Source of the DNA: Promethearchaeota archaeon
GTDB lineage: Archaea > Asgardarchaeota > Hermodarchaeia > Hermodarchaeales > Hermodarchaeaceae
NCBI GenBank assembly: GCA_048939245.1
Contig: JBHLPR010000027.1
Coordinates: 1 to 28,717 of the forward strand
DNA: 28,717 bases
Direction of reading: 5' to 3'
Position 1 is the stretch's first letter. Every line of letters starts with the position of its first letter. Shown piece after piece: positions 2 to 28,715 of this stretch. Under the pieces are notes generated by a model. The model ran no database searches. It was not told where the DNA came from and saw only the letters and a list, made by a program, of their open reading frames with translations. A program made the position numbers and the translations under genes.

Positions 2-298
2 CATCCCATTGTGCAGTTTTATGAACGTCCCACTCTTCGCAAATATAACTTCGTTTCCCAGTGGATGATTGACAGTGGGATGCGGAGCGGAATAAAATCT
101 AAAGAAATGCGGGCAAGAACTATCACTCTTTACATCGATAAAGCCGAATTTGATAAAGCCTTGGATATCCCAACTGAAGATACGATTCATCTTTTCTTAG
201 TCGATTGTGATGGCACCATCCTTTGGCGAGATACAGGAAATTTCTCAGAAGAGAAAGAAGCTACAGTGATGAAAGCTCTCTCTAAATTTAAGGGCTAA
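2..298 (+). CDS. ATP10-like thioredoxin-fold protein, 5'-truncated by the window edge
   Basis: Frame is open back to base 2. Motifs YERPTL..IDSGMRSGI..TITLYIDK..FLVDxDGxILW..G resemble prokaryotic ATP10-family proteins. Confidence 0.6.
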   Translation, partial: HPIVQFYERPTLRKYNFVSQWMIDSGMRSGIKSKEMRARTITLYIDKAEFDKALDIPTEDTIHLFLVDCDGTILWRDTGNFSEEKEATVMKALSKFKG

Positions 299-396: not shown

Positions 397-1035
397 ATGG
401 CTGGAGAAGAATTGTTGGTCTTCTGGATCATGGCAGCAATATTTGGTATCGCAACTGTGATGTTTACCTTACTTTCCTTTCGTTCAGATTCAAATGAGTT
501 TTATGCCTTCGTCGATATTCTCGTTACCTTCATAACAACGATTTCATATGTACTCATGGCGCTGGGGTTCTTAGTGGTCACTTCTGGTATTGGTGAACCG
601 GTGTATTGGAGTCGATGGCTCTTTTACATGGGTAGCTGTAGTTTACTGACCGTTTCTGTTGTAGTTATCCTTAAACAAACTCAGGCAATTAATTTCGCAA
701 AAATTCCTATCTTAACGATGCTTGTAATGTTCTGTGGTTTTCTCGCGGCTTTTATTACAAGTATTGAGCGATGGTGGTTCTTTGTATTCAGTTCCATTGC
801 CTACATTGCCTTATTAATCACCTTGTTTAAAGGGGTGCCTCGAGAAGGAATGAATTCACAACTTATGTGGTTCATCGTCATCTTCTGGTCTCTATTTCCT
901 GGCGTATTTATCCTTGCACCAACCGGTTTCGGCTTGATACCCACATTATATGCAGCGATTCTCTATGCTGCACTGGACGTGATAACAAAAATCGTCTATG
1001 GGTTCATTATCCTGTTTCGAGTGAAAGATAAGTAA
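397..1035 (+). CDS. Microbial rhodopsin of schizorhodopsin type (short 7-TM opsin, retinal Lys present)
   Basis: 212 aa with about 7 hydrophobic segments. Helix C YWSRWLFYMGSCSLL has Phe at the BR D85 position followed by S-C, as in schizorhodopsins. Helix F FWSLFP; helix G LDVITK (D194, K198). AGGAG RBS upstream. Confidence 0.88.
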   Translation: MAGEELLVFWIMAAIFGIATVMFTLLSFRSDSNEFYAFVDILVTFITTISYVLMALGFLVVTSGIGEPVYWSRWLFYMGSCSLLTVSVVVILKQTQAINFAKIPILTMLVMFCGFLAAFITSIERWWFFVFSSIAYIALLITLFKGVPREGMNSQLMWFIVIFWSLFPGVFILAPTGFGLIPTLYAAILYAALDVITKIVYGFIILFRVKDK

Positions 1036-3247: not shown

Positions 3248-3523
3248 TTAGCCTTTGCGGAAGGCTATGCCAAAAGTTCCGCGTGGATAATTCCATTGGA
3301 TGGCGTCTTTATTGCATATGATTTTGCATGTGCCACATTCGATGCAGTCTTCATATTGGAATTGGACTTGGCCCTCGATAAGTTGAAAGCAGTGTGCTGG
3401 ACAGGCAAGTCTGCAGGGTTTGGATTCACATTCTTTGCATTCTTCAAAATTGACTAAAATGTGGGCTTCTTTATCGATATTGTATCGGAGCGTGCTAAGT
3501 TTGGTTTCAATATTATCCCTCAT
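3248..3523 (-). CDS. fixX: Ferredoxin-like protein FixX
   Basis: AHI, CxxC, CPAxC, CIECGTC and WxYPRGxFGI motifs; ATGA overlap with the upstream fixC. Confidence 0.9.
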   Translation of the reverse strand: MRDNIETKLSTLRYNIDKEAHILVNFEECKECESKPCRLACPAHCFQLIEGQVQFQYEDCIECGTCKIICNKDAIQWNYPRGTFGIAFRKG

Positions 3524-4818
3524 AGGCCTCTCACCGCTTGTAATCCATCGATCATGAGGTGTGGAATCGATAATTCGTGAACGATATTTTTGAGGAGTAG
3601 GTTAAGGAGCTTGGGTCGGGGTGTTGCTTTTGACTGGTATAATTGTAGGACTAACTCGTTGATGAAATCTGGATACCGCTCCATTAGGCGGGGGTTGCTT
3701 ACTATGGCTGGTGCATGACGAAACGTTTTCAGGTTTTTGAAAACAAAACTTTGTTTCATTAGATATTGATAATATTTCATGGTCTTTTTAGTAAAATCGT
3801 TCCGTTGTTGGGCTCTAGCGATTGTCGTGGCAGCAGCAATACCTGATGCGATAGCAAAGTTCATCCCTTCAAGAGCATAGCCAATATTAAGGGCGAACCC
3901 TGCAGCATCGCCTGTGACGAGAAAGCCATTGGAATACAACTTAGAAAGCGCTTGATATCCACCTTCGGGAACAAGGTGTGCTGAATATTCAATGTGATTT
4001 CCATCCTTGATTAATCGTTGAACATAGGGGAATTGTTTCAGATAATCAATGAATTCAAAGGATTTCGTTTTTATATCATTCTTGAAGGTTGGAAGCTTGA
4101 CGACTATTCCCAAAGAGAGGCTTTCACGGTTGGTGTAAAGAAACCCTCCACCAGGAAATCCCTTAGTACAGCCCAAATAGGTATGAGCTGCCCCCTCATC
4201 ATCTTCGAGGTGAAACCGATTTTCGATTATTTCACGGGGGAGTTGAATGACTTCTTTAATACCAAGGCCGATATTCTTGGTTTTTAGATCTTTGCGTAAA
4301 CCTGCATGCTCAGTTAGCAGTGAATTGATTCCATCAGCTGCAACAACTACATTTGCCCGAATCTCATCATCACCAGCTTTGATTCCGATAACACGGTTGT
4401 TTTCCCAAAGTAGGTTATCAACTCGAATGCCGGTGGCAAGGAGTGCTCCAGCTTCTTCTGCGCGTTTGGCAAACCATTGATCAAAGTCATAGCGGATGAT
4501 GGAATAGCCGTTATGTGGGGGCTTTTCAAGTCGTTTACTAGAAAAATCAAACGAGAGTGAAGATTGACCGCTTAGGAAGACAAGGTTCCTGTTGGTAATC
4601 GTCCGTTCGAGTGGTGCATCTTCCCAGAAATTTGGTATCAAATCATGAAGCACAGATCCAAATAGTACGCCTCCTGAGACATTTTTTTCTCCGGGAGTTT
4701 TTGCTCGTTCGATTAAAAGCACTTCATGCCCTGATTTGGCAAGGCTATACGCGGTGGCTGAACCAGCGGGTCCTGCTCCAACTACGATTGTATCGACTTT
4801 TTCAACCATTTTTTTCAT
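3520..4818 (-). CDS. fixC: FixC-family FAD oxidoreductase (ETF:quinone oxidoreductase-like)
   Basis: VGAGPAG, GEKNVSGG, ADGINS, GGGFLYTN, EYSAHLVPEGG and GDAAGF..EGMNFAIASG motifs; coupled to fixX. Confidence 0.88.
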   Translation of the reverse strand: MKKMVEKVDTIVVGAGPAGSATAYSLAKSGHEVLLIERAKTPGEKNVSGGVLFGSVLHDLIPNFWEDAPLERTITNRNLVFLSGQSSLSFDFSSKRLEKPPHNGYSIIRYDFDQWFAKRAEEAGALLATGIRVDNLLWENNRVIGIKAGDDEIRANVVVAADGINSLLTEHAGLRKDLKTKNIGLGIKEVIQLPREIIENRFHLEDDEGAAHTYLGCTKGFPGGGFLYTNRESLSLGIVVKLPTFKNDIKTKSFEFIDYLKQFPYVQRLIKDGNHIEYSAHLVPEGGYQALSKLYSNGFLVTGDAAGFALNIGYALEGMNFAIASGIAAATTIARAQQRNDFTKKTMKYYQYLMKQSFVFKNLKTFRHAPAIVSNPRLMERYPDFINELVLQLYQSKATPRPKLLNLLLKNIVHELSIPHLMIDGLQAVRGL

Positions 4819-4821
4819 TCC

Positions 4822-6348
4822 CTATGTGCTTTTTGATTTTTCTTCTATTGGGATGCCGTAATCTTCAAAAATTAAATCTGTCGACACTTTTCCGCTAAGG
4901 AATGCACTTGGGACGCCTCCGCCTGGATGCGTTCCTGCTCCAACAATATAAAGTCCTTTGACATCCCGTGAACGGTTATGGGGCCTAAACCATCCGGATT
5001 GGGTCATGAGGGGTTGTAATTGGAAGGCGTTGCCTTTGTATGCATTGAATTCTTGTTCAAAATCTTGTGGGGTGAAGACTTCGCATACCTCGATGTTCTC
5101 CAAAAGGTCGGGGAGATAATTATCATTGAGAAATTGTAGTACCTTGTCTCGAAAGGGTTCCTTCATTTGATCCCAATCAATACCCGAATCTTGGTTGGTT
5201 ACAGGCACACAGGCATAGAAGGTTTCACATCCTTCTGGTGCTAACTCTGGATCCGTTCGTGTGGGGACATGCAGGTAGATGGCAAAATCGTCGGGTAAGA
5301 TATGACGATCGAAGATATCCTTGACCAATTCCTTATATCGTGGGCTGAAGATGATATTGTGGTGAGGCATTTCCGGATAGCGTTTCTTTGTACCAAAATA
5401 GATCATAAATAGGCTCATGCTATACTTTGCTTTCTTGTATCGACGATTACTATTTTTGCGACGGTATTTCTTGTCAATTAGGCTCATGTATGTCATTGCT
5501 ACATCTGCGTTGCTGATCACAATATCGGCGGGATAGAGTTCTTTGTTGTTAACAATGACTCCGGTGACTTTTCGGTCTTCATCATCGACTTCTATCATGG
5601 TAACCTCTGAGTTGAGTTTGATTGTGCCACCGAGTTCTTTGAATAATCGTTCTAGGGCTTCAACGAGTCGATGGGTACCCCCTCGGACCCAGAGCATGCC
5701 ATATTCACTTTCGAGGTATGCGATTAGTGAATAGACGCTAGTAGTGGTAAAGGGGTTTCCACCGATGAAAAGAGGGAGAAAGGAGAACGCCATGCGAAGA
5801 TGGGGGTGTTTCATGTTGCTTGCTACAAGGCCATAAACGCTCTTATACGATTTCAGTCGGATTGCTGAAGGAACAATTTTTGCCATGCTCCACAGACTTT
5901 CAAAGGAGATCATGGCAAATTTCTCAAATCCCAATTCATAAATGGGTTTCAATAGCTTGAGCCAGCGATGATATCCTTTGATGTCCTTGGGGCTGATTTT
6001 TTTGATCTGTTCAGTAATTTCGTCAATAGTTCCAATATCAAAGTGGGAACCATCGGCAAAATGAAGACGATAATGTGGATGGATTGGTACTAATTCAATA
6101 TACTTGGAGGGGTCTCGTCCCACATCGTGAAACACATCTTCTACCACAAACGGCGGTGTTACAATTGTAGGTCCGGTATCGAACCTGTATCCTTTTCTTT
6201 CAAAGACACCTGCTCGACCTCCAAGTTGGTGACGTTTCTCTAATAATACAACTTGGTATCCTGCAGCCTGCATCCTTACAGCTGCGGATAGACCACCAAA
6301 TCCTCCACCGATCACAATCACATTAGATGGGGTAGTCGTTTGATTCAT
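4822..6348 (-). CDS. crtI: Phytoene desaturase
   Basis: IGGGFGGL FAD motif, FDTGPTIVT, GGNPF, HHNIIF and the C-terminal FRPHN..GAGTHPGGGVP signature; directly downstream of crtB. Confidence 0.9.
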   Translation of the reverse strand: MNQTTTPSNVIVIGGGFGGLSAAVRMQAAGYQVVLLEKRHQLGGRAGVFERKGYRFDTGPTIVTPPFVVEDVFHDVGRDPSKYIELVPIHPHYRLHFADGSHFDIGTIDEITEQIKKISPKDIKGYHRWLKLLKPIYELGFEKFAMISFESLWSMAKIVPSAIRLKSYKSVYGLVASNMKHPHLRMAFSFLPLFIGGNPFTTTSVYSLIAYLESEYGMLWVRGGTHRLVEALERLFKELGGTIKLNSEVTMIEVDDEDRKVTGVIVNNKELYPADIVISNADVAMTYMSLIDKKYRRKNSNRRYKKAKYSMSLFMIYFGTKKRYPEMPHHNIIFSPRYKELVKDIFDRHILPDDFAIYLHVPTRTDPELAPEGCETFYACVPVTNQDSGIDWDQMKEPFRDKVLQFLNDNYLPDLLENIEVCEVFTPQDFEQEFNAYKGNAFQLQPLMTQSGWFRPHNRSRDVKGLYIVGAGTHPGGGVPSAFLSGKVSTDLIFEDYGIPIEEKSKST

Positions 6349-6393
6349 TCTCTTTTCACCATCAATAATTCGTATCCTACTAATTACTCAAAG

Positions 6394-7347
6394 TTAGGGG
6401 TGAATTACGAACTCTCTCAAATCGCGTAAATATTCTCGCCGACATTGAAGAGAAATCCAGAACTTCTTCCATTTGGGTACATACACCCGTTTTTTGAAGA
6501 CATCATAATTCACTTTCTCGATTTCATCGAGAATATTTGCGTAAACACGAGCCGCAACTTTCACAGAAAATGCTGCAGCTGGTGGAAGATCTTGAATGCC
6601 AATTTCTGCTGTTGCATAGTTTGCACGAGCATTGGCAATTTCGAATTTAATTAAATTCCTGAAATTTGGAGTGATTTTTCGAGCTTCAAAATCTTCTCTT
6701 CTAATCCTGAACTTCTTACGTACCTCAACTGGTATGTAGATTCGTCCTTTATCGAAGTCTTCTGCAATATCCCGCAAAATGTTTGTTTGTTGCATGGCGA
6801 TTCCAAGATCAGAGGCTCGTTGAAGCGTCTCTGGATGGATAGCTCGCCAGATGTGGCACATAGAGAGTCCCACCGTGGATGCTACACGAAAACAGTAGAG
6901 TTCTAGCTCTTGTTGGGTTTGGATTTCTTGGTGATGAACGTCCATGCGGACGCCTTCCAGTAACTCATATAGGTATTGGACTGGGATTTGATATTTTACC
7001 AAGGTGTCTCCAAAGGCGTGAAATACTGGGTGGTTAAAGGTTTCTCCGTTGCTTAACCGGCTTATAATCTCGGCTAGTCTATTTATTTCAGTATCAATTT
7101 GTTTTGGCTCGAGGTCTATTTCATCAACGAAGTCATCAGCTAACCGGCAAAATCCATAAAGTGCAGCGATGCTTCTACGTTGTTCTGGTTCAAGGTAACG
7201 TGAAGCAAAAGAAAATGATTTGGCATGTTTTCCGAATAGGTTCATACAATAGTCGTATGCGCGGTTGAGATCGGCAGATGTGAAGTTATCCTTGGTTTGG
7301 ATTTGGGTTGGTATGACTTCTAGATGGTAACGTTCTCCCCTAATCAT
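6394..7347 (-). CDS. crtB: Phytoene synthase
   Basis: AKSFSFAS, LYGFCRLADDFVD, YCFRVASTVG and LGIAMQQTNILRDIAED..GRIYIP squalene/phytoene synthase motifs. Confidence 0.93.
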   Translation of the reverse strand: MIRGERYHLEVIPTQIQTKDNFTSADLNRAYDYCMNLFGKHAKSFSFASRYLEPEQRRSIAALYGFCRLADDFVDEIDLEPKQIDTEINRLAEIISRLSNGETFNHPVFHAFGDTLVKYQIPVQYLYELLEGVRMDVHHQEIQTQQELELYCFRVASTVGLSMCHIWRAIHPETLQRASDLGIAMQQTNILRDIAEDFDKGRIYIPVEVRKKFRIRREDFEARKITPNFRNLIKFEIANARANYATAEIGIQDLPPAAAFSVKVAARVYANILDEIEKVNYDVFKKRVYVPKWKKFWISLQCRREYLRDLREFVIHP

Positions 7348-7551
7348 TGATTTAACGCTCCAATAGGCTAAACTTAACGGGGTTGATTTTGGGTTGGGGG
7401 GATATTTTTTGCTTATAAATAATTTCCTCTTACTATCGTCATAATCTAATACATATCACAATTTGTTTAAAGAACAATTAGACGTCACAATAATGCATAA
7501 TGATTAAATAAAGCAAGCTATGACAGCGCTTTATTCTGAGGGAACGCTACA
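7348..7551. promoter_or_regulatory. AT-rich divergent promoter region between crtB and crtD
   Basis: 204-bp non-coding gap between head-to-head operons, with TATA-like boxes (TTATAAAT, TTAAATA) and a short TTGTT-N5-AACAA inverted repeat. Confidence 0.55.
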
Positions 7552-9030
7552 ATGGCTATTCAGAACATATTGGTTATTGGTGCAGGCGTAGGCGGATTAT
7601 CTGCTGCTGCCTTACTAGCAAAAGAAGGCTATGATGTCACCATCATTGAAAGGAATGCAGAACCCGGAGGACGGGCGCGAGTTTGGAAAACCGAAGGATT
7701 TGTCTTTGATATGGGACCCTCTTGGTACCTGATGCCTGAAATCTTTGAGTATTTTTTTAATGAATTTGGGAAATCAGTTTCGGATTATTATGAATTAATA
7801 CGGTTGGATCCGAATTATCGCATTTTCTTTGGCACTGACGATATTGTCGAGATTACTGCTGATCTTGAACCAAATCTGCAAACTTTTGAAGGATTTGAAG
7901 CAGGTGGTTCGAAGAAACTCCAAGAATATTTGGACAAAGCCAAGGACACCTATGAGTATATGATGGAAGGCATCATGTACAAAGACCTAGACAGCTTTTG
8001 GTCAATGTTTAGTCCGTCATTAATGAAAGCAGGAATGAAATTGCACATCCTAAGTAACATTGATGAATACGTCCAAAAATTCTTCAGAAGTGACCGTGCT
8101 CGAAAAATTCTAGAATATCCAATTGTGTTTCTTGGTGGAAATCCGAAAAATACTCCTGCGCTCTACTCTATCATTTCACATATTGATTACAATCTGGGTG
8201 TCTGGTATCCGCGAGGTGGTATCGGGAAAATCCCTGAAAGTCTAATGAATTTGGCAAAGGAGCAAGGTGCTGATATCCAGTTTGGGGTTGAAGCAACTCA
8301 TATTGATGTAAAGAATCGCTTTGCCCATCGAGTCCAAACATCAGAAGGTGGCATTGATACAGACTTGGTGGTTGTCAATGCTGATTATCCCTGGAGTGAA
8401 ATCAATTTACTTGACTCATCATATGAGACTTATCCTGCAAAATATTGGGAGAAGAAGGTAATTGCTCCTTCCGCATTCGTTGTCTATCTAGGCGTTGATA
8501 GGAAACTGGACCAGCTCACTCACCATAATGTCTTTTTAGAATACGATTGGGTTCAACATTTCGACCAGATTTTCAAGAAACCTTCATGGCCTGATAAGCC
8601 TGCATACTATGTCTGTTGTCCATCAAGATACGATTCCTTGGTAGCTCCAAAGGGCAAAGAGAATATTTTCATTACCGTTCCCATTTCGCCTGGAATTGAA
8701 GATACACCAACAATTCGTAGCGCGTATCTTGACAAAATTATCGCTCATATGGAGAAACTTATTGGTGAACGATTCCGAGACGAAATAAGTGTTAAGCGGA
8801 TTTTCTCGTTGAATGATTTCTCTAAAGATTATAATGCATACCAAGGGACTGCCGTTGGTCTCACTCATACTTTTCGCCAATCTGCTTTCTTCCGTCCACG
8901 ACACCGAAGTAAGAAAGTGAAAAACCTTTACTACACAGGTCAGTACACGCATCCTGGAATCGGGGTGCCAATGGCCCTTGTTTCCTCAAAGATTGTCACT
9001 GACCAAATCAATAAACACTTTGAAGGCTGA
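7552..9030 (+). CDS. crtD: Second CrtI-family carotenoid desaturase, probably carotenoid 3,4-desaturase CrtD
   Basis: IGAGVGGL, FDMGPSWYLMP and HTFRQSAFFRP..TGQYTHPGIGVPM motifs. First gene of a desaturase-elongase-hydratase triplet as in haloarchaea. CrtD versus CrtI is inferred from context only. Confidence 0.72.
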   Translation: MAIQNILVIGAGVGGLSAAALLAKEGYDVTIIERNAEPGGRARVWKTEGFVFDMGPSWYLMPEIFEYFFNEFGKSVSDYYELIRLDPNYRIFFGTDDIVEITADLEPNLQTFEGFEAGGSKKLQEYLDKAKDTYEYMMEGIMYKDLDSFWSMFSPSLMKAGMKLHILSNIDEYVQKFFRSDRARKILEYPIVFLGGNPKNTPALYSIISHIDYNLGVWYPRGGIGKIPESLMNLAKEQGADIQFGVEATHIDVKNRFAHRVQTSEGGIDTDLVVVNADYPWSEINLLDSSYETYPAKYWEKKVIAPSAFVVYLGVDRKLDQLTHHNVFLEYDWVQHFDQIFKKPSWPDKPAYYVCCPSRYDSLVAPKGKENIFITVPISPGIEDTPTIRSAYLDKIIAHMEKLIGERFRDEISVKRIFSLNDFSKDYNAYQGTAVGLTHTFRQSAFFRPRHRSKKVKNLYYTGQYTHPGIGVPMALVSSKIVTDQINKHFEG

Positions 9031-9041
9031 GGTTCTAAGCA

Positions 9042-9902
9042 ATGAGTAGCATAGCACGCCTTGCATGGCGGATTTCACGACCACGATTTTGGCTCTACTT
9101 AGGAGGTACGTACCTCATTGGTTATTCCATCGGGGTAACCACGCTCATCCACTTCCTCAATCCCTTCTTCGCGCTTCAACTCTTTTTCTTCATGTTCCCT
9201 GCCAATGTCTTCCTATATGGAGTGAACGACTTCTATGACGAGGACACTGACATCTTTAATCCCAAAAAAGATGACAAGGAATATCGCGTCACTTCCAAGG
9301 ATCGACGAAATCTGCTTGCCCTTATTCTAGTTTCATTCATATTCGGAATAATCCTCATGCTACTTCAACCTGATATCATCGCAATGGCTCTTTTTGGAGT
9401 ATTTCTGTTGCTCTCCTTTCTATACAGCGCTAAACCTATTCGGTTTAAAGCCCATCCATTCATTGATTTCATGTCAAATTTCCTCTATGTTCTCCCCGCA
9501 ATCATTGCCTTCTATCAACTTCGCTTCTTCATTCCCCCGATCCTGCCTCTTTTCGCTGCATTCATGTGGACTTCAGCTATGCACCTTTTCTCAGCCGTTC
9601 CCGATATAGAGGCTGATAAACAGGCGAATATAACCACAACGGCCGTTCTTATCGGAGCTATCCCCTCTCTAATTCTTTGCTTCTCCTTTTGGTTCATTTT
9701 TGCCGTTATTCTGGTTTTTCTCGTTCCTTGGAATCCTCCCTGGAATGTGCTAATGTTTGTCTATCCTGCTATCCCCCTCTATCTTCTTCTGCGTCGAAAA
9801 GCGAACATTGAGAAAGTTTATTGGCTCTATCCTTATTGGAACGCTGTCTTCGGGTTACTCCTATTCTTCACCATTACTATTCCAAAAATCGTGATCCCTT
9901 AA
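9042..9902 (+). CDS. lyeJ: Lycopene elongase (UbiA-family prenyltransferase, LyeJ/CrtEb type)
   Basis: SRPRFWLYL, NVFLYGVNDFYDEDTDxFNPKK, YSAxPIRFK and MHLFSAVPDIEAD motifs; multiple TM segments; position between desaturase and CruF. Confidence 0.85.
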   Translation: MSSIARLAWRISRPRFWLYLGGTYLIGYSIGVTTLIHFLNPFFALQLFFFMFPANVFLYGVNDFYDEDTDIFNPKKDDKEYRVTSKDRRNLLALILVSFIFGIILMLLQPDIIAMALFGVFLLLSFLYSAKPIRFKAHPFIDFMSNFLYVLPAIIAFYQLRFFIPPILPLFAAFMWTSAMHLFSAVPDIEADKQANITTTAVLIGAIPSLILCFSFWFIFAVILVFLVPWNPPWNVLMFVYPAIPLYLLLRRKANIEKVYWLYPYWNAVFGLLLFFTITIPKIVIP

Positions 9903-10657
9903 TGAGTCTCAATCAGTTCAATCGTATTATTCCATTTCTATCTATTCTCATAGGCTCTTATGTCGCAAGCTACTTTTTCTTCTTCTTTCCTGTTGCGCTG
10001 CTCCAAGGTAGCCTTAGTATAGTTATCCTTCTTGTCGCATTACCCTGCTTGTTTTTTCTATATCACTGCGTTGGTTGGAAAAGCACACTCCTCATTGTAC
10101 TCACCCTAGGCGGTTTGGTTTTATTAATTGAAAGTATTGGGTTGTTGACAGGGTTTCCATATGGGGTCTTCTATTACACCGATTTAGTTGGATTCAAAGT
10201 CTTTGGGTTAGTGCCTTGGGCTGTTCCATTCGCGTTTTTACCGCTGCTCCTGGGGGCAATTACATTATCCATTCATTATATCGAAACCCCCTGGAAATTA
10301 ATTCTGGGAACTGCATTGCTTTTAGTAGTTATAGATTTGGTTATCGATCCGATTCTCGTGCACTTGGGGGTTTGGGTGTGGGTGCCGCCTGGAGCATATT
10401 ATGGCGTACCAATCTCTAATTTCGTTGGATGGTTCATAACAGGTCTAATAACCGTCTCGATTTTCTTTGTTCTCATCAAACACCGATTTAATCCAAAGCC
10501 CAGACTACCAATTTTCATTGCCCTAAGTCTTGTCCTTACATTGGCTTTCTGGTCTGGCTATGCTTTGTGGTCTATGCTTTATATCCCATTTGTACTCAGT
10601 CTCTGCTTACTTGGGCTATTCCTATTTACATTCGTTAAATACTGGCCTGTGAATTAG
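9902..10657 (+). CDS. cruF: Carotenoid 1,2-hydratase CruF (bisanhydrobacterioruberin hydratase-like)
   Basis: IESIGLLTGFPYG..Y..G..VP, DLVIDP and W.W...G.YYGVPISNFVGW motifs. ATG at 9902 overlaps the lyeJ stop (TAATG). Confidence 0.85.
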   Translation: MSLNQFNRIIPFLSILIGSYVASYFFFFFPVALLQGSLSIVILLVALPCLFFLYHCVGWKSTLLIVLTLGGLVLLIESIGLLTGFPYGVFYYTDLVGFKVFGLVPWAVPFAFLPLLLGAITLSIHYIETPWKLILGTALLLVVIDLVIDPILVHLGVWVWVPPGAYYGVPISNFVGWFITGLITVSIFFVLIKHRFNPKPRLPIFIALSLVLTLAFWSGYALWSMLYIPFVLSLCLLGLFLFTFVKYWPVN

Positions 10658-10684
10658 ATCCATGGCCTGATGGTGAGGTTATAA

Positions 10685-11554
10685 CTAAAAGAAGATGTAA
10701 TTCAGAAGAGTCGCGAAGACTAGCACAAGACAAATCGTAACAAGATATCTTGGTGCACGATAACGCATTTGAACCGCGTTAGGCGTTGTAGGGGTTTTTA
10801 CTAATTGCACACTCCGATAAATCAACCAGCAAGAGGACACCACCGCCACTATGAGGTAAAGAAACCCAAGTTGACCTATGACGCCAATTACAATACTCAT
10901 TATTGATGCTATTGAAAATAAAACTAGGATTAGTTGCGCAGCGCGTTTCGATGAAATCGCTGTAGAAAATGTAGTGACTTTGTTTACTTTATCAATATCG
11001 ACATCTTGAACTTCACTGATGAGAGTACGGCCCATTTCCCAGGACATCCCAAAGAACACAAAAAAAAGAACGAAAGTTGGGAAATACTGGCCTGTGATTG
11101 CGGCGCTACCCAAGAGAATGATAAAAAACACGGCTAGCATGGTGCACACAAAACTGTACGGAATTTCCTGCTTACGCATGTAATTGTATGCAAAAGGCAA
11201 GGGTATAGCAATGAACGCAAGAAGCACACACAACGGATTAAGGAAGAAAGTGAGCACTACTGCTACCACGCCATATGTCAAACCAAGAATTAAGGCTAAT
11301 CTCGGGGGAACTACTCCGCTAGGAATTACCCGGTTCGCGGTTCTCGGATTTTTTTTATCAGTTATCCAATCAAAGTAGTCATTCAATGTGTGAGCAGAAG
11401 CAATTGCTAACGCAACAGCAACATACCCAGTAAGAAAAGGAATGAAAAACGGAATCGTATTAGTACTCAGAAAAGTTGCAGCTATGTAAAAAGATGTGGT
11501 GGTTAGAAGTACGTAGGGTCGAGTTAGTGAAACAAGTCCCCTTAACTTATCCAT
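10685..11554 (-). CDS. UbiA-family prenyltransferase (DGGGP synthase-like paralog, substrate unknown)
   Basis: LTRP, LNDYFDxxxDxxNPRTANRxIPSG and a second acidic motif EVQDVDID; about 8-9 TM segments. ATG at 11554; ORF track starts at 11569. Confidence 0.8.
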   Translation of the reverse strand: MDKLRGLVSLTRPYVLLTTTSFYIAATFLSTNTIPFFIPFLTGYVAVALAIASAHTLNDYFDWITDKKNPRTANRVIPSGVVPPRLALILGLTYGVVAVVLTFFLNPLCVLLAFIAIPLPFAYNYMRKQEIPYSFVCTMLAVFFIILLGSAAITGQYFPTFVLFFVFFGMSWEMGRTLISEVQDVDIDKVNKVTTFSTAISSKRAAQLILVLFSIASIMSIVIGVIGQLGFLYLIVAVVSSCWLIYRSVQLVKTPTTPNAVQMRYRAPRYLVTICLVLVFATLLNYIFF

Positions 11555-11622
11555 ATCAATTACTTCCAAGATTCAATTAATTAGTATTTCAGTTAGGGCT
11601 AGTCCACTAAAGTAGTGGTACA

Positions 11623-12743: not shown

Positions 12744-14846
12744 GTGATTCAACTTATTGGTGTGCTTGCTGAAGACGGTGTGCCAGTTCGAATTCGGGCA
12801 TTTGTAGATGTAGAATCTGCATCAGTCCTTGGTGGGATTGTTGAGGTTTTGAAAGGATTATCCTCTGAACTGGAACTGGGACAGGTTCAGCGTTTACAAT
12901 TTCAGGAAAATACTCTGCTTGTTACCGAGGCTGAAAAAGGCTATTCAATTATCGCCTTGGCGGATAAAGCGGAAGATTATGTGGAAGGCTTGTTACGTGT
13001 TATCCGAATTGCTATCGATGACTCATCTTTGGTGAAAGCTAGCGAACCTGTCACCGAAAGGATGCGAGTACTTGTAGATGCCATTTTAGATTTTTTTCTA
13101 CAACCAACCTTGGATGTAGCCCTCGAAGAGATCATTGATCCAGTATGGGGCGCTATTCTCGATCGGTTAAACAAGAATAGAGAGTATGCACAGGCTATTG
13201 AGAAGATTGATGTTCTTATTCGTAATTCCAAAGAGCCTGATCAAATCTGGGAAAAACTTGAAGCAAAGGCGAAAGGATCACTTTTAGAGGCTTTGAATCT
13301 CGCGTTCGTTGGACAATTTGATCAAGCTTGTGCAATCGCATTACAACTTGATGAACCACTTGCACAACTTTTTGCTGTCAAAACAGGCCTTCTCGCGCTG
13401 TCGATGACTCATTTAGCCGCTCCGCCCCGTTATCGACTACGCCGAATCGCGGAAGGTCTTCCTCTAAAATATCAACCGTATTCGGAATTAGCGTATGCTA
13501 CGACATTGTATTACGACCGCCTAATGCCGTATGAGGACTATCTGAAAATTTATCAGAATGCGGCTTCAAGATTTACATTCTCAGAGGACGACGAGGGTGT
13601 AATTTTTGCTTTCCTCTTCATTGATACTCGAATTGTAACGCTTCCTGAATTTGCACGTAAATTAGCAGGTTATTTTGAAAAGAAATCACCCATTCTTCAG
13701 AATTACATCCTGGCTATGTCAGATCGACAGCAGTTGTTTACTAAGCTCTATTCAAGCACATCCTATTCGGAATTTAAAAATCAGGTTAGCAGTTGGAAAA
13801 CAAAAATTAGTTCGATTCTAGAAGATGTTAATCAATTCTTAAAACCCGGCTTTTTAGGGAAGTTATTACGTAGCAACCCTGAAGCGGGTCTTAGAGGCTC
13901 GCTTAACTTAGGTACGTATATTGCGTTATATACGGCCTTGGCTGAATCGCCTGTTTTGAATCTTCGGGAACGAAAAGAAGTGCTCGAAGAGGTGTTATGG
14001 GTCTATTCACAATATTTCCGTAAACTACTAGAAAGCAAACTTCCACTCTTTAATTACACAATTGATAGTGTATTTCAAAGTGTTAGCGTTGTGTTAGGCG
14101 AGTTATTCTACCTGCGTTCAGGAGAAGCCCAACACGAACATATCCCAGTGGTTAAGAAATATTTACAGGACGTTCTGGATACTATGACAGTTGATTGGCT
14201 CCGTAAGCATCCAGATACTTCCACCCTGTTTGTATTGTCGAATGCTACATTTCCTGTCCTTCTCTTGGCAAATGCCACAGATGTACTCGAGGTTCGGTTC
14301 CTCTATCTAGCAATGCGTTTGCTTAATACGATGGCATTAATGAAATCACAGAAAATCGATGTTCAAGATTTTACTACGGATTTGCTTAATATCCAAACCT
14401 CGCTAGCAACTTTCATTATACAATTTCTTCCTGATTCACTTGAAAACCAGTATCTAGAACGTTGTGTACGGGTTATACTGCAGGGACATAAGTTTTTCAT
14501 CAAGCACGGAGTCTTATGTCGGGACGATATCGCTTCAGCAACGCTCCTGACAAGATACCTAAGACCGGCCAATTTAACTGATGACTATCGGATTTATGTT
14601 GATTCAGCGATCACTTTGAACCGGGTTGCTGTTCCTGATGTTCAACGGCATGAATCGGATATCGCTATGTTGGCAACGAATTATTTGGGGTTACTGAAAA
14701 AAGCTAGCCAGACCTTTGATGATGAGAAGTACGTGAAACTTGCGAAGACTGCGTTTCAGCAGACCGTTGAAGTTTGGAATAAATATGGATTCGAATATAA
14801 AGCTCAGGAATTCCAGAAACAATATGGCCGGATATTTCAAGATTGA
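12744..14846 (+). CDS. Large protein with N-terminal longin-like domain and helical solenoid-like remainder
   Basis: First ~120 aa (LIGVLAEDGVPV..LGGIVEVLKGLSSEL..VQRLQF..LLV..YSIIALAD) fit the longin beta-beta-alpha-beta-beta-beta-alpha pattern. The rest is Leu/Ala-rich amphipathic helices. Confidence 0.55.
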   Translation: MIQLIGVLAEDGVPVRIRAFVDVESASVLGGIVEVLKGLSSELELGQVQRLQFQENTLLVTEAEKGYSIIALADKAEDYVEGLLRVIRIAIDDSSLVKASEPVTERMRVLVDAILDFFLQPTLDVALEEIIDPVWGAILDRLNKNREYAQAIEKIDVLIRNSKEPDQIWEKLEAKAKGSLLEALNLAFVGQFDQACAIALQLDEPLAQLFAVKTGLLALSMTHLAAPPRYRLRRIAEGLPLKYQPYSELAYATTLYYDRLMPYEDYLKIYQNAASRFTFSEDDEGVIFAFLFIDTRIVTLPEFARKLAGYFEKKSPILQNYILAMSDRQQLFTKLYSSTSYSEFKNQVSSWKTKISSILEDVNQFLKPGFLGKLLRSNPEAGLRGSLNLGTYIALYTALAESPVLNLRERKEVLEEVLWVYSQYFRKLLESKLPLFNYTIDSVFQSVSVVLGELFYLRSGEAQHEHIPVVKKYLQDVLDTMTVDWLRKHPDTSTLFVLSNATFPVLLLANATDVLEVRFLYLAMRLLNTMALMKSQKIDVQDFTTDLLNIQTSLATFIIQFLPDSLENQYLERCVRVILQGHKFFIKHGVLCRDDIASATLLTRYLRPANLTDDYRIYVDSAITLNRVAVPDVQRHESDIAMLATNYLGLLKKASQTFDDEKYVKLAKTAFQQTVEVWNKYGFEYKAQEFQKQYGRIFQD

Positions 14847-20345: not shown

Positions 20346-20744
20346 TTATATCAACCTCATAAAATACTGCTACCTGTTCAATGAGAATCAGACTTTATAA
20401 TGTCTTGCTCAGCCATCAGAAACACACCGTAGTTAGCTGTTTCAGTTTACTCCCTCCCTCTCCTTCTATATATGAAATGAAGAATAGATACCACAGCGTG
20501 AAGAATCATGACTCGCACCCCTCCACTCAAATCTAAAACGCCCTATTTGAACCCACAAAAGTGGCGGATAACTTACTTACCTGATGATTCATCCGTTATC
20601 GACTTCGACAACGCATCCTAGTGATCGACCGCTATCTTGAAGCCCTTATTCACAAGGAGGAGCGGGGGAGCCAGGGGTACATCCTTCAGCACCGTAACAG
20701 TTAAAAACAAACTAAATTCCGCTGCAATTGCAGAAGTGACTCTA

Positions 20745-21428
20745 ATGCGAGAACCACAACTGCGACACGCGCTATTAGTGCTTTGTATTTTCATAATCGC
20801 GACAAGCACTTCTTCAGTACTTGCACAAAACGGTCAATGGGTATTAATCGGTGAAGACTATTTCACCTACATTGAACCATTATCCGGTCATTCCTCATGG
20901 ATTTTTAATATCACACATGGACCAAACGATCGGTGGGGCATCAATTGTACAATCAGCGGATTCGGCTTTCACCCAGCAACTGTAATCATCTGTGATGAAC
21001 CAGGTTATCATCAGTGGATTGAAACCGGAAATACCCACCAGTGCCATTTTGTTCAAGCCATCAACTATAGTTTGCACACCACTGTCGACCTTCCACATCC
21101 AAGTCAGTGGTACTTCATCCTCAATAACAGCTGTCCAGTGACTCTCTACTTCTCCTTACGCCTTACCCACTACCATTGGGCTACTGGACCCACAATGCCA
21201 CCACCAAATCCTTTTGAAGGAATCAGTAACCTCTTCGGATATCTAATAATCATTGGTCTCGTCGTCTTCATACTAATACCCTGTATTTGCCGAGTCAACT
21301 GTTTCAGTTTGTTCCGTTGGCGAAGAAATAAACATCCTCCCAAAAAAATGGAAAATCCCCAGACTATCATCGTGGTTATGACCCCTGAACAACTCGAACG
21401 GCACGCTGAAGACGACGATTACTATTAA
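20745..21428 (+). CDS. Hypothetical type I membrane protein (signal peptide, beta-rich extracellular domain, TM, Cys/basic tail)
   Basis: Hydrophobic N-terminus ending VLA-Q, beta-rich domain with P..SQWYFILNN, Pro linker, TM YLIIIGLVVFILIP, tail CICRVNC..RWRR. Likely ATG at 20745. Confidence 0.7.
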   Translation: MREPQLRHALLVLCIFIIATSTSSVLAQNGQWVLIGEDYFTYIEPLSGHSSWIFNITHGPNDRWGINCTISGFGFHPATVIICDEPGYHQWIETGNTHQCHFVQAINYSLHTTVDLPHPSQWYFILNNSCPVTLYFSLRLTHYHWATGPTMPPPNPFEGISNLFGYLIIIGLVVFILIPCICRVNCFSLFRWRRNKHPPKKMENPQTIIVVMTPEQLERHAEDDDYY

Positions 21429-21555: not shown

Positions 21556-22593
21556 ATGAGTAAACCCCAATTTATTTTCAAAGTCCCCGTAGCCGGAGAC
21601 GGTGCCGTCGGCAAGACCAGCCTCATCGTCCGGTACACCCAGGGAACTTTTACTGAGACGTACAAAATGACTATTGGCACCTCTTTTGCGGTGAAAACAG
21701 TTGATTTAGATCAGGTGATAGTGAAGCTGCAAATTTGGGATTTGGCGGGACAACCACATTTTGGAGGGGTGCGTCCGTTATTTTATCAGGGGTCAACGGG
21801 CGTCATTTACGTATTTAGTGTGACGGATCGAGCCTCGTTTGATCATTTGGCGGGTTGGCTTGAGGAGGCGCGGAAGAATTCAGGGAATATTCCGGGAATC
21901 CTGATTGGGAATAAGACTGACTTGATGGATCAACGAGTGGTGTCGCGTGAGGAAGCGGAGGCATTCGCGGCCCAAGCAAGCTTAAGGTATATTGAGACAA
22001 GCGCGAAGATGGATGAAAATGTAGGGGATGCCTTTCATTTAATGGCAGCGACGATTATGGAGACCAAACCGGAGTATGGCGTCACCTCTGAAGCTCCGGT
22101 TAAAGTTGCAGTTCCTGAACCAGAAGCGGAACCAGAGGTTAGTCAGCCAGAAGAGCCACAAGTGACGGCTTCTGAGGTTGAACCTGAACCGGAAGTTGAA
22201 CCGATTCCCCTTATCTTAGATGAGTCTGAGGTTCAGAGTCCACCAACACCTGTGCCTGAGCCAGTAGCCCCTGAACCTGAGGTTATTAAGCCGGTTGAGC
22301 CTCCACCGGTAAGTGAATCCGAACCAGTCTCCGTTTCTCCTCCAAGTGAACCCGAGGTGTCATCTGAAGATGTCGTTGTGGAAGTGAAATCCACATCTAA
22401 CCTTGTGGAATTCGTAGGGATTGACCCTCACAGTCTTTCAGAGGAGGATTTTGAGAAAAGATCGATTCATGCAATGCAACGGTTAGGCGTAAGTGAAGTA
22501 GGAGTGTTGGGGACGTTTCTTCGTAGTTTGATTCGTCAAGGGCAACGGGGTGTTGTGATTGAAAGTTTGGAGAGTCTCCAGAAAGATCGCTAG
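21556..22593 (+). CDS. Rab-like small GTPase with long Pro/Glu-rich C-terminal extension
   Basis: G1 GDGAVGKT, G2 YKMTIG, G3 WDLAGQ, G4 NKTD, G5 ETSAK; RabF2 KLQIW intact; AGGAG RBS. Confidence 0.93.
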   Translation: MSKPQFIFKVPVAGDGAVGKTSLIVRYTQGTFTETYKMTIGTSFAVKTVDLDQVIVKLQIWDLAGQPHFGGVRPLFYQGSTGVIYVFSVTDRASFDHLAGWLEEARKNSGNIPGILIGNKTDLMDQRVVSREEAEAFAAQASLRYIETSAKMDENVGDAFHLMAATIMETKPEYGVTSEAPVKVAVPEPEAEPEVSQPEEPQVTASEVEPEPEVEPIPLILDESEVQSPPTPVPEPVAPEPEVIKPVEPPPVSESEPVSVSPPSEPEVSSEDVVVEVKSTSNLVEFVGIDPHSLSEEDFEKRSIHAMQRLGVSEVGVLGTFLRSLIRQGQRGVVIESLESLQKDR

Positions 22594-26936: not shown

Positions 26937-28715
26937 TTAGTCAGGTCGTCTCCGTCGTGTTATGATTCCGATAGCCGCTGCGAGAGTTATGCCAATAGCG
27001 ATGGCAAGGGCGGGGAATCCAGGGATTGGTGGTGGCGGCGTTGTTGTACTAGGAATTTCAACATTTATGGTTTCTTGGTTACTCCATGGACTAGGATTAT
27101 CCTCGTTATCCAGAGCACGAACTCGGAAATAATACGTTCCATCGGTGAGTCCCGTTATTGCTTGGTTCGTCGAGGTGGTATTCCATTCCTGGAGTACGGT
27201 GGAAAAGTCATTGATGGTGGACATCTGTAATTGATAGTGTGAAATCGTGCCATCCACATCTGTGCTTGTACTCCAAGAAATGCTGAAATTGCCTGTTGTA
27301 CTTGACGCACCAGGATCTGATAGGATCGGCGCAGAGGGCGGATTGGCTTGAACTATGAGTTCAACAGGGAAGGTTGTCTTCCAGTTGTCCAGAAGGTCAT
27401 AGGACTTAATGTAATATGTAATGTTGCTTCCGAGGCCAAATTGGTTTGAAGGGATTTGTGCAGAATAGATTGTTCCAGCAACAGTCATGCCAAGTGATTG
27501 TTCTGACCCGGAATCGATTTGATAGTAAACCGTTGCATTGTTGACACCAGCTGGATCGGTAATGTTCGCTGAAATGCTAAGTGCTTCTCCCGTCTTTGGA
27601 GGATCCGGGGTACGTGTTACATCAGAAATAGTGGGGCCATAAATATCCAATTCAGTAAGTGAGGTGTTCAGTAACCATTCGCAGACATTTTCAATAAAAA
27701 TCTCATTATCTGGAACAGGATAATCAAAATCGCTAAAGAAAGTAGTTCCCGAAATCATAATGCGGGAATCCCCAATCTCCTCCACAGCCATTAGGGGGAT
27801 TCGGTCTCCACCACTTCCATCATCAGTATCGTCGTAGATAATAGTAACTGGTGGTAAGTAATCGTCTACTTGGTAGAAGTTTGGATTTCCAAAAGTGATG
27901 TTGGTTACGGCGCTAGGATCAGTGTAGTATAAGCTGGAAGTGGAGTACATTCGAATCGTACTGACGTTTTTCGTCATGTTATAGGTCTGAGTGGCTGGGA
28001 GAATCTGGGTAATGTCACAATACCAGAGTTGGTAGCCGTCTGGGTTGTAAATTTGGTCATCGTTGAACCGGAGGTGTGTTGTGCAATTTGCCATTAAGTA
28101 GTTCAAGGTTGCTCGTTTGAATCCGTATTGGTTTTGGAAGTCTGAATAGCCTGTAACGAGTAGGTTTGTTCGCGTTCCATTCACGAACCAATCAGCGATT
28201 GCATTCGTCTCTGCTAAAGTGAAATCAATATAGGGTGCTGTTATTACCAGCAAATCAACACCAAGTAAATCCGTAGCGGTTATTCCATCCTCATCAACTA
28301 AAACTGTGAGACCCCATTTTTCTAAGCTGCTTTTGAAATTCGTTAATTGAGAATCAACATAATAGTTGTCGTGTCCCCCGTCGATAAGTATTGTGTAGCT
28401 GACGGCTCCTGAAGGAATGTTTGGTGCTTCTAAACCTTGAATTGCTGAATACCATAGATCACGGATGCCGGTGATAGCCTGTTCAAGTTGGAGTTCAATG
28501 ATATCATGAAATGTTCCATTAGAGGTTAACGGACTGGGTGACGGCATATTCTCATCTGGGTAAAGGGCATGACAATCATCATAATACTCATGCGAAAGGA
28601 CTGCTGCATCTACAACAGCTTGTCGTGGATCTGTAATAATTTGTGGGACTGGAATTGACACACTGAATAGATCCAAATTATTATTGATGTCGGTTTCAAG
28701 GACTCCATGACCTGT
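26937..28715 (-). CDS. Cell-surface multidomain protein (GldG/DUF4350-like domain, Ig-like and FN3 domains, PGF-type C-terminal sorting signal), 5'-truncated
   Basis: Frame open to the window end. ILIDGGHDNY..DLLVITAP domain; FN3 ISWS..YQLQ..GLTDGTYYFRVRA; Thr/Pro linker, IPGF, TM and RRRR; many N-x-S/T sequons. Confidence 0.85.
   Translation of the reverse strand, partial: TGHGVLETDINNNLDLFSVSIPVPQIITDPRQAVVDAAVLSHEYYDDCHALYPDENMPSPSPLTSNGTFHDIIELQLEQAITGIRDLWYSAIQGLEAPNIPSGAVSYTILIDGGHDNYYVDSQLTNFKSSLEKWGLTVLVDEDGITATDLLGVDLLVITAPYIDFTLAETNAIADWFVNGTRTNLLVTGYSDFQNQYGFKRATLNYLMANCTTHLRFNDDQIYNPDGYQLWYCDITQILPATQTYNMTKNVSTIRMYSTSSLYYTDPSAVTNITFGNPNFYQVDDYLPPVTIIYDDTDDGSGGDRIPLMAVEEIGDSRIMISGTTFFSDFDYPVPDNEIFIENVCEWLLNTSLTELDIYGPTISDVTRTPDPPKTGEALSISANITDPAGVNNATVYYQIDSGSEQSLGMTVAGTIYSAQIPSNQFGLGSNITYYIKSYDLLDNWKTTFPVELIVQANPPSAPILSDPGASSTTGNFSISWSTSTDVDGTISHYQLQMSTINDFSTVLQEWNTTSTNQAITGLTDGTYYFRVRALDNEDNPSPWSNQETINVEIPSTTTPPPPIPGFPALAIAIGITLAAAIGIITRRRRPD

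Follow-up and report, generated by a model that had tools for sequence, protein, structure and literature searches.

A schizorhodopsin (SzR) from an Asgard archaeon has lost the carboxylate at the cytoplasmic end of helix C, and this loss is real, fixed and under purifying selection in the clade to which the protein belongs. Its gene lies near the start of the window, by which we mean the whole stretch of DNA analysed: the entire 28,717-nucleotide (nt) contig JBHLPR010000027.1 (C110 in our numbering) of the Promethearchaeota archaeon assembly GCA_048939245.1, a 2.52-Mb metagenome-assembled genome of 122 contigs that is 88% complete. The motif that reads Phe-Ser-Glu (FSE) or Phe-Ser-Asp (FSD) in canonical schizorhodopsin pumps reads Phe-Ser-Ser (FSS) here, and since Ser87 does not fit the third position we place the protein outside the canonical FSE and FSD pumps, as a variant lineage of the family. 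The cytoplasmic half-channel is predicted still to hold a conserved carboxylate, on helix B (Asp40) instead of helix C. We tentatively favour, with somewhat less than even confidence, the reading that the FSS opsin is an inward proton pump in which D40 provides the release charge and the proton path runs over serine, tyrosine and water (S87 and Y201). The features of the gene, in window coordinates, are the following.

397–1035, plus strand: FSS-type schizorhodopsin-family opsin gene, 212 amino acids (aa), seven transmembrane (TM) helices
514–516, plus strand: codon GAT of Asp40 on helix B, the retained cytoplasmic carboxylate, corresponding to SzR4 N34 and MtSzR D40
613–648, plus strand: helix C core with R73, F76, Y77, S80, C81 and L84, matching residues that SzR4 requires to pump inward
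622–624, plus strand: codon TTT of F76
634–636, plus strand: codon AGC of S80
655–657, plus strand: codon TCT of Ser87, at the position of D96 of bacteriorhodopsin (BR), SzR4 E81 and MtSzR D87 in a gap-free alignment
700–702, plus strand: codon AAA of Lys102, replacing a conserved Glu (SzR4 E95)
976–999, plus strand: part of helix G with the counterion D194 (GAC, 976–978), the retinal lysine K198 (AAA, 988–990) and Tyr201
Helices in the AlphaFold2 (AF2) model, residues: 4–29, 34–55, 72–91, 97–119, 125–144, 151–173 and 183–211

The open reading frame (ORF) begins with ATG, with a GGAG about 10 nt 5′ of the start, and its product matches Pfam Bac_rhodopsin (2.7e-24). Searching the PDB sequences with phmmer gave SzR4 (7e4g, 6.1e-31) and AntR (9or2, 9.3e-29), with E-values 18–20 orders of magnitude better than those for sensory rhodopsin II and BR. 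An AF2 model made from a 59-sequence alignment has a predicted local distance difference test (pLDDT) score of 94.6 and seven helices, and its top Foldseek match is again SzR4 7e4g (TM-scores 0.89/0.96, root-mean-square deviation 1.3 Å). Closest to SzR and AntR in sequence and fold and nested in the SzR clade of the tree described below, the protein is a schizorhodopsin in the phylogenetic sense, as the first-pass annotation, which had called it schizorhodopsin-like, had supposed; family membership and fold are directly supported by these comparisons. The cytoplasmic part of TM6, counted from the conserved proline to the end of the helix, spans 13 residues in SzR4 and ∼21 in other type-1 rhodopsins, and the AF2-predicted TM6 (151–173, with P168) gives an intermediate value of ∼17. 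Helix E reads R-W126-W127-F-F, with a bulky Trp at the BR W138 position in an alignment made by eye; we take W126-W127 to pair with BR W137-W138. As this position does not hold the small Gly by which carotenoid-antenna rhodopsins of the xanthorhodopsin or HeimdallR type form a fenestration, the opsin does not appear to belong to them.

Helix C reads R73-W-L-F76-Y-M-G-S80-C81-S-L-L-T-V-S87 in the printed sequence, just as the first-pass annotation had transcribed it. Its placement of Ser87 at the BR D96 position is likewise upheld, since S87 aligns without gaps to E81 of both SzR4 and AntR. The three motif residues F76, S80 and S87 thereby stand at BR D85, T89 and D96. No Asp or Glu was found anywhere across helix C or the C-D loop of the opsin. 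The counterion D194 and the retinal lysine K198, which had been described as retained, are both invariant in the 38 members of the clade, and D194, at the place of BR D212, is the only counterion.

This clade emerged from a search of 5.8 billion proteins, which returned 89 relatives of the opsin, 38 of them clade members and 51 other SzR hits. All of the 38 closest homologues (70–100% identity) have F-S-S, the nearest being listed in the databases as Hermodarchaeia, Hermodarchaeota and Hodarchaeota, and the hits at ≤56% identity are mostly F-S-D, with F-S-E, F-S-N, F-S-Q, F-S-V and the Y-S-D of MtSzR also represented. A maximum likelihood tree was built from 118 sequences, with DTD rhodopsins as the outgroup; the 37 of the 38 FSS homologues that were long enough to be included came out as a single clade with a Shimodaira–Hasegawa-like approximate likelihood ratio test (SH-aLRT) value of 99. 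The clade is nested within a 77-sequence FSD-type subfamily that includes MtSzR (SH-aLRT 98), and the split between the SzR clade and the DTD outgroup has an SH-aLRT value of 100. Its nearest sisters are P0039 (F-S-D with D40) and P0040/P0042 (F-S-D with H40).

The GTDB order of this genome comprises 19 species in one family with two genera of 15 and 4 species. Exactly one Bac_rhodopsin match was found in each of 11 of the 15 species of the genus, every one of them F-S-S, and none in the four species of the sister genus. As no rhodopsin other than the FSS opsin was detected in any of these 11 species, the FSS opsin replaces a canonical SzR and does not accompany one. Across them Ser87 is encoded by TCT, TCG, TCA and TCC, and the median pairwise dN/dS of the opsin is 0.06 with dS near saturation, so that purifying selection is seen directly. 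The first-pass annotation had considered a base-call error unlikely; serine in all 38 close homologues and in 11 species genomes, through four TCN codons, bears this out.

A search of the literature found no paper naming or characterising an F-S-S schizorhodopsin, no description of this clade and no characterised member of the other non-carboxylate SzR lineages. The founding paper reported that 5 of 63 SzRs have neither E nor D at the helix-C position (PMC7148096), and the family was summarised as ‘FSE’ in the November 2026 numbering paper (PMC13739731). The position is more variable than this literature suggests. In a scan of 1.84 billion cluster representatives it was occupied by E, D, N, S, T, V, H or Q across the family, and the family tree requires at least seven changes between carboxylate and non-carboxylate states. 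Among the other non-carboxylate lineages, FSN (P0047/P0055/P0062 and others), FSQ (P0067) and FSV (P0076) all keep D or E at position 40; A or P stands there in P0218 and P0229, which are two distant FSS sequences, and in the FST, GSV, GST and FSH lineages. The FSN, FSQ, FSV, FST/GSx and distant FSS lineages arose independently of the FSS clade of the window.

Sequences P0218–P0259 form a deep SzR subfamily with the motifs FST, GSV, GST, GSS, CSS, VST, FSH and GSH and with Ala or Pro at position 40. With no acid at the helix-C site or at position 40, they have no cytoplasmic carboxylate at either site. AntR-like members occur within this subfamily, and it is probably bacterial. No published description of P0218–P0259 was found.

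Asp40 was mapped to SzR4 N34 in an alignment in which V-x-F-x-T-x-x-S-Y of helix B matches position for position between the two proteins. In the FSS clade position 40 is Asp in 37 of the 38 members and Glu in the remaining one. The crystal structure of SzR4 shows N34 and T195 hydrogen bonded to E81 (PMC8040798), and in the cryo-electron microscopy structure of MtSzR two waters bridge D40 to the acceptor D87 (bioRxiv 10.1101/2025.10.20.683367). We infer that D40 is equivalent to BR T46, as both hydrogen bond the helix-C carboxylate. The first-pass annotation had proposed checking by alignment for another acidic residue at the E81 site: there is none in the sequence, but D40 is predicted to come close to this site in space. 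Within the FSD-type subfamily 48 sequences have S, N, Q or V, and hence no carboxylate, at position 87; D or E is present at position 40 in all of these and in 13 of the 29 sequences that do have a carboxylate at position 87, the remainder having H or N; this association rests on about four origins and 2–4 independent contrasts, too few for a statistical test of the correlation between the two positions.

The closest characterised protein is MtSzR from Methanoculleus taiwanensis (P0044), which is 52% identical to the window protein, belongs to the same FSD-type subfamily and has identical residue numbering. Both proteins have D40, the hydrophobic gate residues, T107, I205, loops of the G/K93 type, D194 and K198. 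As T107 agrees with the N100T state of the SzR3 type, a λmax of about 540–555 nm would be expected for the window protein. They differ in that MtSzR has D87 (motif Y-S-D), E102, G108, C44 and F201, whereas the window protein has S87, K102, M108, T44 and Y201. Inward pumping has been demonstrated for MtSzR (bioRxiv 10.1101/2025.10.20.683367), while transport by the window protein is only predicted. Identity to SzR4 and SzR1 is lower (∼34%), yet R67, F70, Y71, S74, C75, S76, L78, W154, P158, D184, T187 and K188 of SzR4 are all present in the window protein. The differences from SzR4 are E81 to S87, N34 to D40, T195 to I205, E95 to K102, S101 to M108, W161 to F171 and F191 to Y201. AntR, from the bacterial SzR subgroup (PDB 9or2/9ork), shares the F-S-x helix C core and has a natural Glu at the position of Ser87. 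AntR-like sequences fall in the other subfamily of the tree and carry A, S or P at position 40, with no acid.

R73, F76, Y77, S80, C81, L84, W164, P168, D194 and K198 are invariant in all 38 members of the clade, as is the equivalent of SzR4 T187; Y77 and W164 correspond to the Y71/W154 retinal clamp of SzR4, S80 and C81 to its S74-C75 pair and L84 to its L78. In SzR4, transport is lost in S74A, in C75A, C75S and C75T, and in L78A (PMC8040798). Every SzR4 residue with transport-abolishing mutations is thus invariant in the clade except E81, the others corresponding to S80, C81, L84 and D194. The gate positions are hydrophobic throughout (L/Y36, I/V91 and L84; the SzR4 gate includes L30 and L85). 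The photochemical core is that of an inward pump, and the one requirement of SzR1 and SzR4 that is missing is the negative charge on helix C.

Comparison of the 38 FSS members with the 51 other SzR hits also revealed replacements specific to the clade. Position 102 is Lys in all 38, Glu in 39 of the 51 other hits and Glu or Gln in the nearest FSD sisters. Ser or Cys at position 44, one turn above D40, is replaced by Ala, the window protein itself having T44, and Gly or Ser at position 108 by Met. The latter is the position of SzR4 S101, which belongs to a polar cluster near E81 (bioRxiv 10.1101/2025.10.15.682728). Tyr201 stands where all 51 other SzR hits have Phe (SzR4 F191, BR F219). The earliest branch of the clade, P0037, already has S87, K102, A44 and Y201, but A108. 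The cytoplasmic side as a whole has lost two acidic residues and gained a lysine and a tyrosine hydroxyl, and helices B and D have become less polar. Of the 18 conserved positions specific to the clade, 10 fall within the cytoplasmic third of the AF2 model, compared with an expected 34% (p ∼ 0.05), a weak signal that is biased by loop variability.

The FSS opsin is probably a functional, retinal-binding photoprotein whose lineage descends from an FSD-type inward proton pump with two cytoplasmic carboxylates, D40 and D87, as in MtSzR. At the base of the clade D87 would have been replaced by Ser together with E102K, S/C44A and F201Y, with G108M following after the earliest branch and D40 being kept throughout. 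If the opsin still pumps inward with the help of D40, then once all-trans retinal has isomerised to the 13-cis form, the Schiff-base proton on K198 would leave toward the cytoplasm, with D194 as the single counterion and F76 filling the D85 site. The route would be a water chain lined by S80, C81, S82 and L84 and by the hydroxyls of S87 and Y201, and D40 would provide the negative charge that E81 must give in SzR1 and SzR4. Without the charge of D87 to repel it, D40 may hydrogen bond S87 directly, mirroring the N34-E81 pair of SzR4. The Schiff base would then be reprotonated from the outside. The D40-S87-Y201 contact is predicted by homology to the structures of SzR4 and MtSzR; binding of retinal is likewise predicted, as are transport itself and its direction, and the residues named here are observed directly in identity and conservation.

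Continued pumping is plausible because D40 is retained, because the E81Q mutant of AntR is cited as pumping about like the wild type (in PMC8040798) and because xenorhodopsins, in which this position is occupied by A, L or S, pump inward. The xenorhodopsins (NsXeR and PoXeR) share with Anabaena sensory rhodopsin (ASR), which has Ser86, a non-carboxylate at the BR D96 position. They pump inward through acceptors on other helices, D216 in PoXeR and H48/D220 in NsXeR (PMC8040798, PMC13739731). Xenorhodopsins and ASR form an unrelated type-1 branch, about 18% identical to SzRs. With D kept at the D85 site and D212 lost, their counterion arrangement is opposite to that of the window protein.

Several observations weigh against this reading. 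The E81Q mutation abolishes transport in both SzR1 and SzR4 (PMC7148096, PMC8040798). The statement in the first-pass annotation that E81 is needed for transport accordingly holds for these two proteins and not, as far as the citation goes, for AntR. Sensory rhodopsins typically have no carboxylate at the D96 position, as illustrated by Ser86 of ASR (PMC3267196). The replacements E102K, Ala44 and Met108 reduce charge and polarity on the cytoplasmic side, which looks like remodelling rather than simple compensation, and Y201 is not universal in the clade, the P0028 group having reverted to F201. The small number of origins behind the association of positions 40 and 87 counts here as well. Finally, the supply of retinal is a difficulty. 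Searches of the 88%-complete genome with Pfam BCD, NCBIfam blh_monoox, RPE65 and Lycopene_cyc found no Blh/Brp, RPE65 or lycopene cyclase above cut-off, the BCD search having been run without a positive control.

The genes around the opsin bear on what else it might do. The neighbouring features of the window are the following.

2–298, plus strand: 3′ part of a gene for a 152-aa Cys-less thioredoxin-fold (ATP10-like) protein, cut by the contig end; the rest is on contig C56
1169–2611, minus strand: cyclobutane pyrimidine dimer (CPD) photolyase/cryptochrome-family gene, matching Pfam DNA_photolyase and FAD_binding_7 and NCBIfam photolyase models
3520–11569, no strand assigned: carotenoid gene cluster with a FixC-like flavoprotein, two CrtI/CrtD-type desaturases, phytoene synthase (CrtB), two UbiA prenyltransferases (LyeJ-like) and a CruF-type Caroten_synth protein (hydratase)

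The photolyase gene is convergent with the opsin and conserved near it in relatives, and a gene for a Pyridox_ox_2 protein also lies downstream of the opsin. In L002, in L004 and on a Joint Genome Institute (JGI) contig, this carotenoid cluster is likewise found after the opsin. With CrtB, CrtI/CrtD-type desaturases, a LyeJ-like UbiA and CruF, the predicted enzymes resemble the set for synthesis of the haloarchaeal C50 carotenoid bacterioruberin. The cluster also encloses a second UbiA and a FixC/FixX-like flavoprotein pair. The arrangement in relatives is either this one or a version of it that includes genes for fasciclin, redoxin, Staygreen, PolX, Fpg and UDG. Judged by gene content, the opsin sits in a light- and ultraviolet (UV)-stress island of photolyase, carotenoid, redoxin and DNA repair genes; the neighbours of two canonical FSD SzRs in other Asgard genomes are unrelated to this island.

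Photolyase was found in 13, the opsin in 11 and CruF in 7 of the 15 species of the genus, and none of the three in the four species of the sister genus. This contrast suggests a split between light-exposed and dark lifestyles within one family. In one sister species a CruF (Caroten_synth) match (G014:C64:7156-7719) contains three in-frame stops, two TAG and one TAA, and may be a pseudogene lying inside that species' carotenoid cluster.

The ATP10-like gene lies ∼100 bp upstream of the opsin on the same strand in most genomes of the clade. A full copy (P0090, L002:9444-9902) gave a borderline match to Pfam ATP-synt_10 (22.1 bits, cut-off 22.3). Its AF2 model (pLDDT 94.3) has TlpA/ResA/peroxiredoxin-like fold matches and no CxxC. 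In two species of the genus, G010 (L034, G010:C134) and G013 (L033, G013:C18), the opsin and the ATP10-like gene are jointly absent from the syntenic sites, at which no remnant of either gene was detectable. The flanks are kept, with fasciclin, redoxin, Staygreen and photolyase genes in one and crt genes and photolyase in the other. Absence from some species of the genus makes the opsin an accessory gene within it. Over the order, the ATP10-like gene was found in 10 of the 11 opsin-positive and none of the 8 opsin-negative genomes. We considered this co-occurrence as independent evidence of a link and rejected it, as adjacent genes are assembled or lost together and as two genomes break the link: in G009 the ATP10-like gene adjoins a photolyase on another contig than the opsin, and the neighbours of a Thorarchaeota homologue are a photolyase and an NmrA/DUF2867 gene, the 5 kb covered on either side containing no rhodopsin. 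More generally, the ATP10-like protein is conserved across Asgard lineages and some bacteria, recurrently beside photolyase and NmrA/DUF2867 genes.

The main rival reading, which we consider less likely, is that the opsin is a photosensor or regulator which pumps vestigially or not at all, D87S, E102K and a drier cytoplasmic half having stopped net transport. It would signal the presence of light, perhaps by way of a long-lived M-like state, to a partner in control of the photoprotection genes nearby. The transport-dead E81Q mutants of SzR1 and SzR4 and the serine of ASR would be expected on such a view, and so would the coordinated changes D87S, E102K, S44A, G108M and F201Y, the cytoplasmic enrichment of clade-specific positions, marginal and biased as it is, and the location in a light- and UV-protection island. 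The signalling partner of ASR is a small soluble protein from the same operon (PMC3267196), and a conserved gene for a 152-aa soluble protein lies close upstream of the opsin and is absent together with it in G010 and G013. We first considered the product of this gene as a candidate transducer akin to ASRT; the gene, however, seems to travel with photolyase and not with the opsin, as seen in G009 and the Thorarchaeota genome. No match to the methyl-accepting chemotaxis protein (MCP) signalling domain (PF00015) was found in the 88%-complete genome. Since the upstream soluble gene also occurs beside photolyases without an opsin, no candidate stands out for a dedicated transducer of the kind that pairs sensory rhodopsins I and II with Htr and ASR with ASRT. 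The cytoplasmic loops are very short and the opsin has no extra domain, all pump-critical helix C residues and D40 are kept, and AntR pumps with E81Q, at least as cited. It is conceivable, though less likely than pumping, that the FSS clade represents the first non-pumping sensory schizorhodopsin and the first light sensor of any sort proposed for Asgard archaea, regulating the adjacent photoprotection island. If it did, the signal might pass through the Cys-less thioredoxin-fold neighbour or through direct contact with the LyeJ-like prenyltransferase. Bacterioopsin in Halobacterium contacts a LyeJ-type prenyltransferase, which is a precedent for such contact.

That the opsin has become a transporter or channel with another substrate or direction, for example an outward pump, a pump for anions or cations or a passive proton leak gated by light, seems improbable to us, as nothing near the Schiff base has changed. 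In other families of rhodopsins, ion specificity is indeed redefined by changes at motif positions (PMC11532467, PMC13739731), and D87S with E102K has made the net charge of the cytoplasmic face more positive. Yet F76 and S80 at the first two motif positions, the single counterion D194, R73 and the retinal pocket as a whole are as in SzRs that pump inward, and no new polar or charged residue for binding an ion was seen near the Schiff base. An outward pump would have no extracellular acceptor with F at the D85 site, and the F70D and F70E mutations do not invert SzR1 (PMC7148096). It is hardly credible that the gene is a relic, decaying or without function, or that the serine reflects an error of assembly. 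Both the lack of recognised retinal-synthesis genes in the genome and the absence of the gene from some species of the genus would fit a relic; the intact frame in 11 species, dN/dS of ∼0.06 at near-saturated dS, the invariance of K198, D194 and the pocket residues, and the retention of Ser87 through turnover among four TCN codons rule it out. The inward pump that uses D40 thus remains the reading we prefer.

According to the ‘untrapped proton release’ model, SzRs cannot pump inward without a negative charge at the cytoplasmic end of helix C. The model rests on E81Q mutants of two proteins and is contradicted by AntR. The FSS clade is a natural experiment kept by selection across a genus, with the helix-C charge gone and the helix-B carboxylate retained. 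If it pumps, the required charge would be positional and not residue-specific, and D40 would be a handle for optogenetic tools based on inward pumps. If it does not, there would be sensors among the schizorhodopsins, and a system for light signalling would exist in Asgard archaea. Either outcome bears on the purpose of inward pumps, as this is the only rhodopsin detected in its genomes and is located in a UV- and light-stress island. The variant itself is less surprising than first judged, and its interest lies in being a natural mechanistic test of proton release. A heliorhodopsin was also looked for in the 88%-complete genome and none was found, in a search without a positive control.

Farther along the window, three ORFs gave no Pfam match: 12744–14846 (plus strand, 700 aa), 20637–21428 (plus strand, 263 aa) and 26937–28676 (minus strand, 579 aa). 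The gene at 21556–22593 encodes a 345-aa small GTPase of the Ras/Roc family with a long C-terminal extension.

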